32,000 nt of DNA from Eikenella glucosivorans. Lineage in GTDB: Bacteria; Pseudomonadota; Gammaproteobacteria; Burkholderiales; Neisseriaceae. The DNA is taken from contig NZ_JACSGR010000007.1 in assembly GCF_016025525.2 (NCBI RefSeq), positions 208,679 to 240,678 of the forward strand, given 5' to 3'. The position numbers and the translations under genes are program-made. Positions 28,410 to 32,000 of this stretch are shown piece by piece; position 1 is the stretch's first letter, and every line of letters starts with the position of its first letter. Under the pieces are notes generated by a model. That model was not told where the DNA came from. It worked only from the letters and a program-made list of their open reading frames with translations, and did not search any database.

Positions 28410-28485
28410 AACCGCCGGATACCGCAGCAAATAAAAAGATAGCTTATTGCGTGTCAATAATCCTTTACGTTTCTTTACCGTATAG

Positions 28486-28532
28486 CCAAGCTGCCCCACA
28501 TTGACAAATCAACGTGGGCAGCTTGGTTTTTT
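28486..28532 (+). terminator. Palindromic hairpin plus T6 at the junction between the core genome and the IS110/prophage segment
   Basis: CCAAGCTGCCCCAC (28486-28499), a 14-nt loop, GTGGGCAGCTTGG (28514-28526), then TTTTTT (28527-28532). It ends 6 nt before the recombinase stop codon on the other strand. Confidence 0.55.
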
Positions 28533-28538
28533 ATGGTT

Positions 28539-29504
28539 CTATTGTGTGCTATTCCTTGCCTGATACCGCTCCGGCTCGAAGTCCTGCCCAGTCTTTATCA
28601 GATGGAAGGCAATCACAGCCAATTTTCGCATCAAAGCCACAATGATGACTTTCGGCGGTTTCTTTTTCTCTTTAAGCCGTTCAATAAATGCCGGAAAGGC
28701 TTTGTCCCGATAGGCGACCATGGCGGGCATAAACAGGGCGGCGCGCAAATCGTTTTGGCCGAACTTGGATATCCGGCTAGGCTTATTCAGGCTGCTGCCA
28801 GATTGCCGATGCCTGGGATCTAGGCCTAGATAGGCCACCAGTTCGGAAGCTTTGTTAAAGCGGCCATGTTGCAGCAAGGTAAACAGGACGGCCGCGGAAG
28901 TGAGGCCGATGCCCGGAATGGTTTGCAGCCGTTTGATTTTGTCCGCATGCTCTTCATCCTGTTTCAATAGCTGTTTGATTTGCTGGTTTACCATTTTAAT
29001 CTGCTCGTTCAAATGGCTGATGCTTTGATTCAGGTAGCCTTGTAGGTAGTCCGGTGCGGTTTGCCGTTTGGTTTCCTCTCCCGCCCGCTGCCGTTTCAGG
29101 CGTATCAGGTAGCGGTTCAAATCGCGCAACTGCTGCTGTGCTTCGGTCAATGGCTTCCATGGCTCCGGTTGTACCATTTGGCTGTATTGCGCTATCAGCT
29201 TGGCATCCTGTTTGTCGGTTTTGGAGCGTTTGAATACTGCCATCCCGAACGATTTTATCCAGTAGGGATTAACTACCGAAACCGTATAAAGGCGGCTGAA
29301 ATAGTCTGCCGCCTGTTCGTAGTAAATGCCGGTGTATTCCATGCAGATATGCAGGTTGTTTTCCGCATCGTGCGCCTGTAGCCATTTGCGCAATCTGGCA
29401 TAGCCTACCTGATGGTTGTCAATGATGATTTCCGCCGTTTTACCGTCGTCCAGCAGCAGGCAGCAATCCAATTTGTGCTTCGATACGTCTATTCCGAGGT
29501 GCAT
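28539..29504 (-). CDS. IS110-family (DEDD/Piv-type) transposase-recombinase
   Basis: 321 aa from the ATG at 29504.
- N-terminal RuvC-like DEDD motifs: MHLGIDVSK, CMEYTGIYY, KTDKQDAKLIA.
- C-terminal Transposase_20-type domain: IPGIGLTSAA...RQSGSS...ISKFGQNDLRAAL.
- One in-frame DUS lies at 29029-29040. Confidence 0.9.
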   Translation of the reverse strand: MHLGIDVSKHKLDCCLLLDDGKTAEIIIDNHQVGYARLRKWLQAHDAENNLHICMEYTGIYYEQAADYFSRLYTVSVVNPYWIKSFGMAVFKRSKTDKQDAKLIAQYSQMVQPEPWKPLTEAQQQLRDLNRYLIRLKRQRAGEETKRQTAPDYLQGYLNQSISHLNEQIKMVNQQIKQLLKQDEEHADKIKRLQTIPGIGLTSAAVLFTLLQHGRFNKASELVAYLGLDPRHRQSGSSLNKPSRISKFGQNDLRAALFMPAMVAYRDKAFPAFIERLKEKKKPPKVIIVALMRKLAVIAFHLIKTGQDFEPERYQARNSTQ

Positions 29505-29566
29505 AAATTTAACCTTATCAATGCGGATTCGGCTGTGCCGTTCCAAGATAGCTTCCAAATTCAGGT

Positions 29567-29639
29567 AAAAAAAGAATCCGTGTCCCCATCTTTTTACCGA
29601 CTTCAAGAGTCAGGCTACACCTTTCGGGCTCACGGATTC
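29567..29639 (-). terminator. Long stem plus U7 tract between zot and the recombinase gene (a terminator, or the 3' end of a structured ncRNA)
   Basis: On the minus strand, GAATCCGTG (29639-29631) pairs with CACGGATTC (29582-29574). The stem encloses a sub-hairpin (CCtGACT/AGTCGG) and is followed by TTTTTTT (29573-29567). A separate 7-bp hairpin GATTCGG/CCGAATC lies at 29643-29664. Confidence 0.5.
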
Positions 29640-29662
29640 TGTGATTCGGTCATGACTCCGAA

Positions 29663-29770: not shown

Positions 29771-29789
29771 ATTTATTCCTTCCCTTACT

Positions 29790-30932
29790 CTATTGTGCCG
29801 ACAGTGGCGCATCATGGGCATAGGCCAGATTGGTTTTGCTTTGGCCGTCTAAGGACAGGACGGAAGGGCTGCCGCCGTCTGCCGCTGTAGGTTGCTGCGG
29901 GGCGGCGGTTTCCTGCCGGGCTTCTTTGTAGGGATTGAAGGGCAGGCCTTCCGATGCGTATTGCCTGCACAGGGCTTCCGGCACTTCCCGAACCTTGGTT
30001 GCCTGGTCGGTATAACAGGCACAGCCGCTTTCCCCGCCGTCGATGCAGGCGGCCACCCGCTCGAACTGCCTAACCTGCCGCACGCCGTTATACAGCGGTT
30101 TGGATTCGGGGCGTTCGGCCAGGGTGGGCACGAACATTTCCGGGGTCAGGTTGCCATTTTCCCCCTGCATGGATGAAGTGGCCACTTGAGTAGCCTGCCG
30201 AATATCTGAAACGGGATTGCCGCTAGGTTCGGATTCCGTTTGTGCCTGCTGCTGACTGGTTTGGGCGTTGCCTTTGGCTTTAAAGCCCTGATAGGTTCTC
30301 CAGCCCATATAGCCAACAATCGACAGCATAAACAACACTACAAGCGGCCCGAATACCAAGACATACCACCACCGCGAACGGACTTTCTTGTTATGGCTGT
30401 GGACTTCGGCAGATTTGTAGTAATCAAAAACTTCCTTATTTATTTTATGCACGCTGGAAACGGCGCGCTTGGCTTCACTGGTCGTATTCGTTACCGCCTC
30501 ATTCCACTCCAGACGGGTCAGGCCGCCCATTTGGTTGGCAGTAATATGGATATGCTTATTCACGACCTCTTTCAGGTTCAAATCGATGATTTTCGGGGAC
30601 TGTGTAATAAAAATCATGTCTATGCCGTAATGGCCATGAACGTTGAGAAAGGATACGTTGGGCGGCATTTTGCCGTTGCCGTAGCGTTTGGGGTATAAGT
30701 CTTGCACTTCGTCAAAGACCACCAGCGAGCCGATGTTTTCTTCCCACTTGAGCCATTCATACATATCTTCCCAGCTGTGCCCTTCCGGCGGCTGATGGTG
30801 CGGCAGCTTCAGGCCATTGATGTTGGAGAACAGCTTGCGGCCTTTGTAGTCTTCCTCATGCATAATCATATCGACGACAAAGGCGGTTTTGCCGATGCGG
30901 GGTTTGCCGGTTACGAGAACGATTTGCGCCAT
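29790..30932 (-). CDS. Zot-like (pI family) filamentous-phage assembly ATPase
   Basis: 380 aa. It has Walker A TGKPRIGKT, Walker B LVVFDEVQ, and a central TM helix WWYVLVFGPLVVLFMLSIVGYMGW followed by a periplasmic C-terminal domain. Its start lies 3 nt after the upstream gene's stop. Confidence 0.88.
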   Translation of the reverse strand: MAQIVLVTGKPRIGKTAFVVDMIMHEEDYKGRKLFSNINGLKLPHHQPPEGHSWEDMYEWLKWEENIGSLVVFDEVQDLYPKRYGNGKMPPNVSFLNVHGHYGIDMIFITQSPKIIDLNLKEVVNKHIHITANQMGGLTRLEWNEAVTNTTSEAKRAVSSVHKINKEVFDYYKSAEVHSHNKKVRSRWWYVLVFGPLVVLFMLSIVGYMGWRTYQGFKAKGNAQTSQQQAQTESEPSGNPVSDIRQATQVATSSMQGENGNLTPEMFVPTLAERPESKPLYNGVRQVRQFERVAACIDGGESGCACYTDQATKVREVPEALCRQYASEGLPFNPYKEARQETAAPQQPTAADGGSPSVLSLDGQSKTNLAYAHDAPLSAQ

Positions 30933-30935
30933 GGC

Positions 30936-31223
30936 TTATTTCCTCCCTAGGCGGCTGGCGAGTTTGGTCATGGATTTGAAGGTAACGATAAAAGTCAGCA
31001 TGCCGAACATGATGTTCATCACGACCCCACCGCCGGAGATATAGAACATTTGCAGCAGCCCGACAGGGGCACCGGAATTAAGCAGCAAACCTGTAATTTC
31101 CTGCTTGAAACGGCCAATAATCAAATCAAAACCGACATAGGTAACGGCGGTTAAAGCTAGTGCCGAGAATATACGGGCAACGACGTTAATCAATAAGGGG
31201 GCTAGGGCAGCAAGGAATTTCAT
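30936..31223 (-). CDS. Small phage membrane protein, pVI-like (DUF2523-like) minor coat/assembly protein
   Basis: 95 aa with 2-3 hydrophobic helices. It sits immediately upstream of zot, as in Neisseria, Xanthomonas and Vibrio inoviruses. An AAAGGA SD lies 6 nt before the ATG. Confidence 0.6.
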   Translation of the reverse strand: MKFLAALAPLLINVVARIFSALALTAVTYVGFDLIIGRFKQEITGLLLNSGAPVGLLQMFYISGGGVVMNIMFGMLTFIVTFKSMTKLASRLGRK

Positions 31224-31270
31224 GTTCTATCCTTTCACTATTTTTGCTTTCATAGCGTTTCAGGTAGCCT

Positions 31271-31532
31271 GCTCCGGTACTGTTGCCGAACCCTTGCGGG
31301 GGACTAGTCCCCCTGCACCCCCTAGTCTCACTTGCGACGCCGCGTGGGGCAGGGGACGGGCTTCGCCCTTACACCCTCCCCCACGGGCTAGAGTGTGGGG
31401 CAGGGGTGCCCTGTAAAGGGGGTATTCGTAAAGACCTGCGGCCTTTACAAAGCTTCCCCCTTGACAGGGCGGAGACATAACGGGCAATGACGGTGAGGGC
31501 TGGCCTATTCGTCTGTAAATAGGCTGCTGTTG
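31271..31532. other. G-run-rich, multi-hairpin non-coding island inside the phage morphogenesis module
   Basis: - Perfect 16-nt palindrome GGGGGACTAGTCCCCC (31298-31313).
- Three-tier hairpin at 31344-31384.
- Two-tier 57-nt hairpin at 31411-31467.
- 7-bp hairpin at 31503-31524.
- Direct repeat GTGGGGCAGGGG at 31344-31355 and 31395-31406.
- No credible ORF. Confidence 0.6.
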
Positions 31533-32000
31533 CTACACTTCCTGACGCACCACACGGGCGACGAAGAAGGCAGCCACTAGCCAAGCACCGGCGATAATAA
31601 ACGGCCTAATTTTGCGAGCGGCGGCGCAGGCAGGTTCGAGGCTGATGCTGAAGCGGCTGCCGAAGGCTTCGAACTCTTCACCCTTGGGGCAGGCGGCATC
31701 GGTACTGAAGACGTTTTCGGGTTTGAAATCGAGATTGACGGTTTCTTTGGGAATGCTTAAGTCGGCATCTTCGGGTTCAGGCTGTTGGTCACAAGCCAGA
31801 ATATCAGGGTGTTCTTTGCACAGGTCGAAGGGCGGCGGGGTTTCTGTGCCGGGTTTGTCGCCGCTGCCGGTATTGCCGGCAGGCGGGTTTTTTGGTGCGG
31901 GGGCTTCGGGGGAGTTAGGTTTAAGGTCGGGGCGGTTAATGATGGTTTCTTGTACACAGACGCCGTTCGGGCAGTTATAAAATTTCCAGCGTGCCTGTTT
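31533..32000 (-). CDS. TspB/pIII-like phage adsorption (minor coat) protein, C-terminal 155 aa; the 5' part is outside the window
   Basis: My own translation of the open minus-strand frame that runs off the window edge gives ...CPNGVCVQETIINRPDLKPNSPEAPAPKNPPAGNTGSGDKPGTETPPPFDLCKEHPDILAC...ACPKGEEFEAFGSRFSISLEPACAAARKIRPFIIAGAWLVAAFFVARVVRQEV*. It has a Pro/Gly linker, Cys-rich modules and a C-terminal TM anchor. Its position upstream of the pVI-like gene and zot matches MDA ORF6 (TspB). Confidence 0.55.
   Translation of the reverse strand, partial: KQARWKFYNCPNGVCVQETIINRPDLKPNSPEAPAPKNPPAGNTGSGDKPGTETPPPFDLCKEHPDILACDQQPEPEDADLSIPKETVNLDFKPENVFSTDAACPKGEEFEAFGSRFSISLEPACAAARKIRPFIIAGAWLVAAFFVARVVRQEV

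Follow-up and report, generated by a model that had tools for sequence, protein, structure and literature searches.

Filamentous phages of the Nf/MDA type have been known since 2005 to integrate at dRS3 repeats by means of an IS110-like transposase; to our knowledge, how they recognize these sites has never been explained. We describe here one end of a prophage with this kind of architecture, found in a 32-kb stretch of contig NZ_JACSGR010000007.1 from Eikenella glucosivorans (the window, to which all coordinates refer), together with a candidate guide RNA for its recombinase. The Nf phages integrate via an IS110-type enzyme at dRS3, and in some Nf4 prophages the transposase gene is inverted; for Nf1, integration at dRS3 takes place with a conserved CT (PMC7058167). 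IS110 elements use bridge RNAs (Durrant et al., Hiraizumi et al.), and under the rule described for IS621 in the same papers the 5' side of each RNA loop has the top-strand sequence of left flank and core, its 3' side is able to pair with core and right flank, and two handshake bases after the right target guide (RTG) pair with donor positions 6-7 after strand exchange. Our literature search, which was of incomplete coverage, returned no paper linking bridge RNAs to inoviruses and none naming the DNA uptake sequence (DUS) as a phage attachment site.

The visible part of the prophage spans 28437-32000 (about 3.6 kb); the left two-thirds, where the genes for Rep, the ssDNA-binding protein and the major coat protein are expected, would lie beyond 32000. 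We conclude with good confidence that the visible part is the right-hand end of an integrated inovirus prophage of Nf/MDA architecture, equipped with a recombinase and its guide RNA and inserted in a DUS. The IS110-group recombinase most likely works under the guidance of a bridge RNA, with the entire phage genome as its cargo. The direct observations concern gene identities, the homology of the RNA and its covarying structure, the complementarity and covariation of guides and junctions, and the DUS at the empty site of relatives; we infer the exact core, the left junction, and the completeness and activity of the prophage. Related loci and contigs compared with the window carry labels from L003 to L054.

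In the mechanism that we propose, an RNA of about 163 nt from just upstream of the recombinase gene would fold into a 5' hairpin and two internal-loop modules. The circular replicative form would carry its attachment site, attP, just 3' of the recombinase gene, as AAGCTAT-CT followed by the right donor segment (RD). The donor loop would pair with attP (left donor segment, LD, AAGCTAT; core CT; RD predicted to resemble TATATATTGCG), and the target loop would pair with the host site (left target flank, LT, (GT)GTAGC; core CT; right target flank, RT, TTTTA). That host site would be the 5' edge of an Eikenella DUS behind a run of A (AAAAAG/GCTACCTGAA, on the other strand; here and below a slash marks the junction). 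Strand exchange at CT would insert the whole phage into the first DUS downstream of ybcJ, and the repaired empty site would read ...GCAAATAAAAAGGCTACCTGAAA.

A candidate bridge RNA upstream of the recombinase gene

Exactly 285 nt (29505-29789) separate the Zot stop codon from the recombinase ATG. The initial annotation had described this interval as a 285-bp structured spacer; the length is right, and the structure is confined to one part of it, as the interval consists of a conserved open reading frame (ORF) of 35 codons (29663-29770) followed by 163 nt of structured, non-coding sequence (29505-29667). That the spacer is structured had thus been seen, and its role as a candidate guide RNA for the recombinase had been missed. 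The predicted fold, with its two internal loops upstream of the recombinase gene, comprises a 5' hairpin, then a long stem with an internal loop and an inner hairpin, followed by seven U residues (U7), and a second module with an inner hairpin of its own, whose loop varies (ACA, CACG, TGTG) while the stem is kept. Between the window, L005 and L006 the 163-nt RNA is nearly invariant, the flanking genes being about 85% identical.

Homology and covariation extend this picture beyond close relatives. A plain MAFFT alignment of 17 sequences shows compensatory changes in 10 of the 11 pairs of the target-loop outer stem; RNAalifold recovered that stem alone from this alignment, in which the other helices are misaligned by one column. 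A covariance model built from ten Neisseria-type sequences only has a single match in the 32 kb of the window, at 29505-29667 (35.6 bits, E ~1.6e-7 by rough calibration), and it also matches the corresponding region of L005, L006, L043, the saliva phages L046-L048, L041 and L035. Across nine matches of the model, none of them used in building it, 89.9% of the cells are paired as against 27-43% in slid controls, and in their structural alignment 23 of the 28 pairs show compensatory changes on both sides. We make no claim for a stem closing the donor loop (ACCU/AGGU in the window), since the Neisseria types do not conserve it.

The U7 tract stands directly 3' of the closing stem of the target module, and U-rich tracts are found at this place in all relatives; it looks like an intrinsic terminator or attenuator inside the RNA gene, and might damp transcription of the donor module and recombinase gene beyond it. 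The RNA is presumably made, and bound by the recombinase.

Correspondence between guides and junctions

The guides read from the window fit the IS621 geometry with a CT core. On the donor side, all nine positions of the left donor guide (LDG) AAGCUAUCU agree with AAGCTAT, the end of the prophage, followed by CT, and the same rule holds in relatives with other sequences (Table 1). On the target side, UAAAA-AG-AU from the 3' side of the loop is the reverse complement of the junction AT-CT-TTTTA, again over nine of nine positions, UAAAA corresponding to the host flank TTTTA; as expected from the rule, the partners of the handshake bases AU are the final two bases of the donor rather than those of the target (GC). 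This stretch of RTG, core and handshake guide (HSG) covaries with the flank across three independent Eikenella-type copies and at least four Neisseria-type classes; in the first six rows of Table 1 the guide, from the 3' side of the target loop, is the reverse complement of donor positions 6-7, CT and five bases of the RT. When all were compared against all, the match of a junction to the RNA of the same locus was 8-10 nt long (6 nt in L035), compared with 4-8 nt between classes.

Of the left target guide (LTG) GUGUAGCCU, the final 7 nt match (AG)GTAGC-CT, GUAGCCU being the end of the reverse-complemented DUS, and GUAGCCU likewise matches the left junction of L005 over 7 nt. The predicted target loop is therefore complementary to the target flanks including the core, more weakly so in its LTG part, and we treat the LTG matches as only supportive of the guide reading. 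For the right donor guide (RDG), the counterpart in L005 pairs with CT-TATATATTGCG at 11 of 13 positions, interrupted by a single bulge and one or two mismatches; in the L013 type, agreement with the left end is 10/10.

Table 1. Guide sequences with the DNA they correspond to, and the site after ybcJ in occupied and empty form
Locus	Part	Guide (RNA)	DNA
Window	RTG + core + HSG	UAAAAAGAU	ATCTTTTTA
L005	RTG + core + HSG	AAAAAAGAU	ATCTTTTTT
L043	RTG + core + HSG	AACAAAGAU	ATCTTTGTT
N. meningitidis type		GAUGACGAGA	TCTCGTCAT (flank of CGTCATTCCCGCG...)
L010		AGGAAAAGA	TCTTTTCCT
Oral Neisseria type		CAAAAAGAU	ATCTTTTTG
Saliva phage	Donor side	ACACUAUCU	own attP, ACACTAT-CT
Saliva phage	Donor side	AUACUAUCU	own attP, ATACTAT-CT
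L035	Donor side	GUAGCAUC (elsewhere GUAGUAUC)	GTAGCATC (elsewhere GTAGTATC)
Window	Occupied site		...GCAGCAAATAAAAAG/ATAGCTTATTG
E. corrodens L045 (GCA_009650815.1)	Empty site		...GCAAAT(Correia-like element)AAAAAG/GCTACCTGAAAGCG
L054	Empty site		...GCAAATACAAAG/GCCACCTGAAAGC
L044	Empty site		...AAACATAAAG/GCTACCTGAAAACGG

The attachment site

The 12-mer AGGCTACCTGAA, the Eikenella DUS dialect (Frye et al. 2013), has 42 exact copies in the window, 40 in host DNA and two inside the element; with up to one mismatch there are 46 copies, against 0.08 expected in 32 kb. Three prophage-free relatives keep the genes MurJ-LuxS-ybcJ or LuxS-ybcJ, and in each of them a DUS of matching orientation and register stands a short way past the ybcJ stop codon. 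Their common pattern is ...AAAAG/GCTACCTGAAA where the window has ...AAAAAG/ATAGCTT; written in the orientation of the phage, the empty site is TTTCAGGTAGC-CT-TTTTATTTGC and the occupied right junction is AATAAGCTAT-CT-TTTTATTTGC. Comparison of the window junction with these three empty sites places the crossover at AG/GCTACCTGAA, inside the DUS. Seen from the phage, the sequences of the window, L005 and L043 run together as far as ...AATAAGCTATCT and differ beyond it, and homology to L005 and L043 decays at 28432-28436. The right end thus displays insertion at a CT core inside a common repeat of the host, here the DUS after ybcJ.

A CT core is present at all left junctions of relatives. In L005 the left junction reads ...AAAGTTTCAGGTAGC-CT-TATATATTGCGCCCCG (in short form, ...TTTCAGGTAGC-CT-TATATATTGCG) and lies at a reverse-complemented DUS; L005 and the Neisseria-type loci have in common that the left end begins with CT/TATATATTG(C/A)G and a hairpin. 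The contig L027, of the oral Neisseria type, has TTTCAGACGAC-CT-TATATATTGCC, the reverse complement of AG-mucDUS (for the dialect, see PMC7371117). A core of TT or TC was considered and dropped, CT being the choice that fits the LDG (7+2), the handshake rule and the published CT. We also considered L005 as a circular phage genome, its ends sharing 18 bp, and rejected this: the shared bases are the DUS word, repeated in the host, the left flank is a DUS abutting CT/TATATATTGCG as in Neisseria, and the right flank matches the RTG of L005 itself.

None of the 42 exact DUS copies in the window has the RT TTTTA beside CT, the best agreeing at 4/5 positions; only a subset of DUS copies would qualify as target. 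Most copies form closely spaced inverted pairs just 3' of genes, where they resemble terminators (for example at 28118-28149, 27125-27161 and 3429-3570); the phage sits in the first member of the pair after ybcJ, and the second is expected beyond the far end of the prophage. In L045 a Correia-like miniature inverted-repeat element (ATAGTGAATTAACAAAAACC...AATTTAATCCACTAT, at ~4886-4986) stands beside the same post-ybcJ DUS; with this element in L045 and the phage in the window, the spot has been hit by two different mobile elements.

Comparison with described systems

The recombinase aligns over its full length with those of ISCro4 (9t56, E 3e-54) and IS621 (8wt6, E 2e-50), the motifs GIDVSK, ICME, SKTDxxDA and SGSS being aligned among them. 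Further likenesses to these elements are an RNA gene that precedes the coding sequence; the succession of 5' hairpin, target loop and donor loop; LDG and LTG on the 5' sides of the loops, in sense orientation and including the core, which is CT; and an RTG on the 3' side followed by two handshake bases for donor positions 6-7. There are also differences. The cargo of IS621 is a 1.3-kb insertion sequence (IS), whereas here it would be a whole phage genome of about 8 kb; the RDG region overlaps the ribosome-binding site; and the function of IS621 and ISCro4 has been characterised experimentally, whereas ours is read from sequence.

With the Neisseria prophages Nf1-Nf4 (MDA-phi, Ngo-phi6-9) the element shares the right-end order TspB - pVI - Zot - (small ORF) - recombinase, the CT core, the left-end start CT/TATATATTG plus hairpin, a homologous upstream RNA (found with the model built from Neisseria loci) and insertion in an abundant short host repeat. 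It differs in its Eikenella host and in its target, which is the edge of the Eikenella DUS plus a T-run in place of the dRS3/RS3 flank CT/CGTCATTCCC; its guides end in CU and those of the Neisseria types in CA; and a hairpin-rich cis element lies between TspB and pVI here and after zot there. In some Neisseria-type loci (L022 at ~1190-1290, L031 and L039 at ~11060-11160, and L024) AGTAGTAT-CT at the right end is succeeded by the locus's own RNA gene in reverse complement, from TATATATTCAG on, and a further junction, AAGGGTAATCCC-ATG, connects the recombinase gene to host DNA of unrelated sequence. The DNA that encodes the RDG in Neisseria-type loci has CT-TATATATT on its bottom strand, which duplicates the genuine left end; were the phage to recombine with itself there, the recombinase gene would be inverted, as has been described for Ngo-phi6.

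The same architecture is found in the saliva inoviruses D_HF3_10, D_HF3_12, D_HF38_14 and D_HF3_8 (OR148979, OR148970, OR148973 and OR148982) and in L005, L006 and L040. The circular saliva genomes have an intact attP, LD-CT-T(A/G)TATATTG, right after the recombinase gene. Their recombinase and structural modules are shuffled, D_HF3_10 having the closest Zot (59%) and a recombinase of 34% identity, and their target guides point to other DUS dialects (ACGGCC). The saliva and IMG/VR records are metagenomic, with minimal or no annotation and with no host or mechanism assigned. A further parallel is offered by ICENmu of Neisseria mucosa, an integrative conjugative element (ICE) whose attachment site contains the host DUS (PMC7371117); it is likewise a mobile element of the Neisseriaceae with the host DUS dialect in its attachment site, and differs in being an integrase-mediated ICE with a 21-bp att motif, neither a phage nor dependent on an RNA-guided recombinase.

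Alternative explanations

Several observations weigh against the reading of a bridge-RNA-guided prophage. The window RNA folds only modestly better than its shuffles (minimum free energy -50.9 kcal/mol, z -2.06), the structural alignment behind the pair counts was fitted to the model, a search of 27000-32000 against Rfam (E up to 1) returned no matching family, and a scan for sigma-70-like promoters near the RNA gene found no site. The LTG matches are short (5-7 nt), with spurious ones of like length occurring, and positions 1-2 of the 9-nt LTG mismatch the DUS. The match of the RDG to the conserved left end is discontiguous, and the conserved UAAGG on the RDG side is also the ribosome-binding site of the recombinase. 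Some 1.1 kb separate the RNA gene from the donor crossover and some 7 kb from the left end; being so far from both ends, the gene cannot be driven by a junction-formed promoter in the manner of IS621. Independent insertions of the Eikenella type amount to three right junctions and one left junction; and since the left end is outside the window, LT, RD and the completeness of the prophage are taken from relatives.

Some of these points would suit recognition of the sites by protein alone, as was proposed for Piv/PivNM before 2024, with the region upstream of the recombinase gene acting as a leader or regulatory sequence and the short identities representing DNA sites bound by the recombinase, or relics of recombination, in place of RNA guides. 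The promoter scan and the double duty of UAAGG are of this kind, and in the loci with an inverted recombinase gene (L022, L031 and L039) recombination does occur at DNA copies of the guide sequences. Recognition by protein alone nevertheless fails to explain why host flanks that differ are complementary to a loop that changes in step with them, or why compensatory changes keep four helices; moreover, the enzyme is a full-length homologue of the RNA-dependent recombinases of IS621 and ISCro4, and the pattern of matches reproduces the IS621 rule down to the two handshake bases. We judge it improbable. Still harder to uphold, to the point of being very nearly discounted, is an autonomous IS110 insertion sequence sitting beside a phage remnant and unrelated to the integration of the phage: IS110 elements are common and often insert in repeats, and solitary copies of a related gene exist in Neisseria (L024, L031, L039), but the order zot - small ORF - RNA - recombinase is kept in more than 40 loci, among them circular inovirus genomes of 7.5-9 kb. 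The gene has one copy in the 32-kb window, the exact protein is on one contig, and in relatives the gene is linked to zot; neither these records nor the relatives point to a multi-copy autonomous element. Nor is the layout that of a compact IS with a circle-junction promoter, the left end CT/TATATATTG adjoining Rep some 7 kb away in L005 and the circular genomes. The guides define a donor site whose two halves lie apart, one in the DNA 3' of the recombinase gene and the other in the left end of the phage near Rep, and hence the mobile unit is the phage.

Whatever the mechanism of insertion, the prophage could be a decayed or truncated remnant that no longer excises or makes virions. Only 3.6 kb of it is visible and many Nf-type prophages of Neisseria are rearranged; set against this, none of the four genes in view is disrupted and the RNA hardly varies, fragments with 100% identity are present in two public read sets that are unrelated (L003 and L004), and close relatives are full length. 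A remnant seems to us unlikely, if less so than the other two alternatives.

Gene content and relatives

All prophage genes in the window lie on the minus strand, and Pfam, PHROG and NCBIfam matches bear out the identities proposed in the initial annotation: co-oriented genes for a Zot/pI protein, a pVI-like protein and a partial TspB-like protein, with a DEDD (IS110/Piv-type) recombinase as the last gene at the prophage end, 3' of zot and with the host junction 100 nt after its stop codon. The recombinase scores 222 bits against the NCBIfam model "IS110 family RNA-guided transposase" and has both the DEDD RuvC-like domain (PF01548) and the Tnp domain with the catalytic Ser (PF02371); the TspB-like C-terminus matches Pfam Neisseria_TspB (69.6 bits) and NCBIfam VF_TspB_C_term (52.6 bits). 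The description of the module as almost gapless has to be given up, as 309 nt of non-coding DNA (31224-31532) separate TspB and pVI. The fall in G+C reported after ybcJ is real and modest, from 0.559 (1-28436) to 0.521 (28437-32000), with the lowest values at the right end of the prophage (0.41) and in the RNA gene (0.44). On the host side, where LuxS and MurJ are found upstream, ybcJ (S4_2) ends at 28409 with its stop codon at 28407-28409. With protein P0001 of Eikenella sp. S3360 the recombinase shares 100% identity, which identifies the host as Eikenella, in keeping with the abundant Eikenella DUS and with the genome type first assigned; the host-dialect DUS that the element was said to carry are the two exact copies listed in Table 2, and the comparison with insert-free genomes that had been suggested places the att site at a CT core within the post-ybcJ DUS. 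The internal copies might, as first proposed, help the element to spread by transformation; a more direct tie to the DUS is its use as the attachment site.

Table 2. Features of the prophage end and its host junction, in window coordinates
Feature	Position	Strand	Remarks
Host right target flank RT, TTTTA	28432-28436	-	22 nt after the ybcJ stop codon
Core dinucleotide CT	28437-28438	-	AG on the + strand; putative crossover; 27 nt after ybcJ
Right non-coding prophage end	28439-28538	-	~85% identical to L005, L006 and L043 down to the core
Left-donor segment LD, AAGCTAT	28439-28445	-	AAGCTAT + CT equals the donor-loop guide
Conserved hairpin in right end	28486-28526		13-14 bp; T7 on the + strand at 28527-28533
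IS110-family DEDD/Ser recombinase	28539-29504	-	321 aa; Pfam DEDD_Tnp_IS110 72 bits, Transposase_20 69 bits
Exact Eikenella-dialect DUS	29029-29040	-	inside recombinase gene; no counterpart in L005 (GACTACCTGAA there)
Candidate bridge RNA gene	29505-29667	-	163 nt, just upstream of the recombinase ATG
RDG side GCAUUGAUAAGG	29513-29524	-
Donor-loop inner hairpin	29525-29544	-
LDG AAGCUAUCU	29546-29554	-	in the donor-binding loop
U7 tract	29567-29573	-
Closing stem of target-binding loop	29631-29639 / 29574-29582	-
RTG + core + HSG UAAAAAGAU	29588-29596	-
Target-loop inner hairpin	29597-29613	-
LTG GUGUAGCCU	29612-29620	-
RNA 5' hairpin	29643-29664	-
Small ORF	29663-29770	-	35 codons (MPRHYWKNFVLRRFVSS...; MPRHYWKNFVLRRFVSSTVSLIVRQLASLLRTFFK); overlaps Zot 3' end; stop inside RNA 5' hairpin
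Zot/pI-type inovirus assembly ATPase	29790-30932	-	380 aa; Pfam Zot 99.5 bits; PHROG 197 at 234 bits
pVI-like minor virion protein (DUF2523)	30936-31223	-	95 aa; Pfam PF10734 38.6 bits; PHROG 1242
Exact Eikenella-dialect DUS	31259-31270	-	in the TspB-pVI gap
Conserved hairpin-rich non-coding element	31285-31475	-	inside the 309-nt gap 31224-31532
TspB-like adsorption protein	31533-32000	-	C-terminal 155 codons; cut by the window end

The initial annotation's view of an Nf/MDA-like architecture in Eikenella agrees with gene content and order elsewhere. The order TspB - pVI - Zot - IS110 recombinase at the prophage end recurs in some 30 prophage loci of the Neisseria type and in the circular genomes of inoviruses of human saliva, in which zot is followed by a short gap, the IS110 transposase, and then the replication module, coat genes, attachment protein and pVI. 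Zot and TspB have their best matches in inoviruses (for Zot, the best phage match is the saliva Inovirus D_HF3_10 at 59% identity), and the recombinase, single-copy in the window, adjoins zot; neither the non-phage origin nor the independent multi-copy IS that might have overturned the original view was found. Closest are the IMG/VR contigs L005, L006 and L040, with about 85% DNA identity to 31241-28433 of the window and proteins 89-95% identical (73-80% for the TspB-like C-terminus), and the Logan contig L043 is similar to the window in the same way. L005 carries Rep_trans (126 bits), the upstream module and a full TspB gene; the pVI-like protein is identical on two short public contigs, L003 and L004. 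A metagenome scan with the right-end pattern returned L049 (the same insertion as L005) and two chance soil matches, and the sole return of a scan of genome contigs was a Moraxella metagenome-assembled genome.

About 30 further loci, mostly with the same order and many from isolate genomes, have recombinases 37-45%, Zot 27-42% and pVI 32-56% identical to those of the window, as well as TspB, and their flanks are the RS3/dRS3 of pathogenic Neisseria. Against the Neisseria-type loci the identities are 40-45% for the recombinase, 31-42% for Zot, 32-36% for pVI and 26-33% for the TspB C-terminus. With only 26-45% protein identity there is no close kinship to genogroups Nf1-Nf4, and the element represents a separate lineage of the Nf-type architecture and not a member of Nf1-4. 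The Thermus phages Zuza8, phiOH16 and Zuza27 (6.5-6.8 kb) encode IS110-family transposases 29-31% identical to the window recombinase; use of the family by small phages therefore reaches well beyond the Neisseriaceae.

The 35-codon ORF is kept in L005, L006 and L043, with changes that are mostly third-position or synonymous; a PHROG search with it gave no informative family match. The hairpin at 28486-28526, with T7 3' of it on the plus strand and A6 before it on the minus strand, resembles a terminator facing the ybcJ side, possibly a two-way one that serves the recombinase gene too, and an analogous hairpin stands 3' of the recombinase gene in Neisseria-type loci. Within the gap between TspB and pVI, the element at 31285-31475 folds as single-stranded DNA with -53.5 kcal/mol (z -4.4) and has homologous stretches in L048, L035/36 and L005/6/40; its long hairpin varies at the tip and keeps its stem in L048 and L035, and cores of 20-24 nt are found in all Neisseria-type loci, where their place is the interval from zot to the RNA gene. 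The element may serve as a signal for packaging or as an origin for the complementary strand, moving as a module.

Phage integration and the DNA uptake sequence

We regard the bridge-RNA reading and the DUS target as well-supported inferences, and as an extension of published mechanisms more than a surprise. The candidate bridge RNA between zot and the recombinase gene has loops that can be read against attP and the host attachment site, attB; it would extend RNA-guided recombination from small insertion sequences to a phage integrase moving a genome of about 8 kb, and integration sites would become predictable from phage sequence alone. The same model would explain how the Nf phages find dRS3, and would account for the inverted transposase gene of Nf4 in that the RDG-encoding DNA mimics the donor site. 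Natural systems that move a complete replicon as cargo could also interest engineers of bridge recombinases.

We lean, by a modest degree, towards the broader view that across this clade of Neisseriaceae inoviruses the LTG of the phage bridge RNA tracks the DUS dialect of the host, the species "barcode" of transformation thus serving as attachment site. The LTG GUAGCC(U) fits the Eikenella dialect AGGCTAC..., ACGACC fits the N. mucosa-type AGGTCGT..., and ACGGCC fits AGGCCGT.... If this is true, the RTG would pick out a subset of the thousands of DUS copies, and lysogeny in the naturally competent Neisseriaceae would be tied to the DNA uptake sequence.

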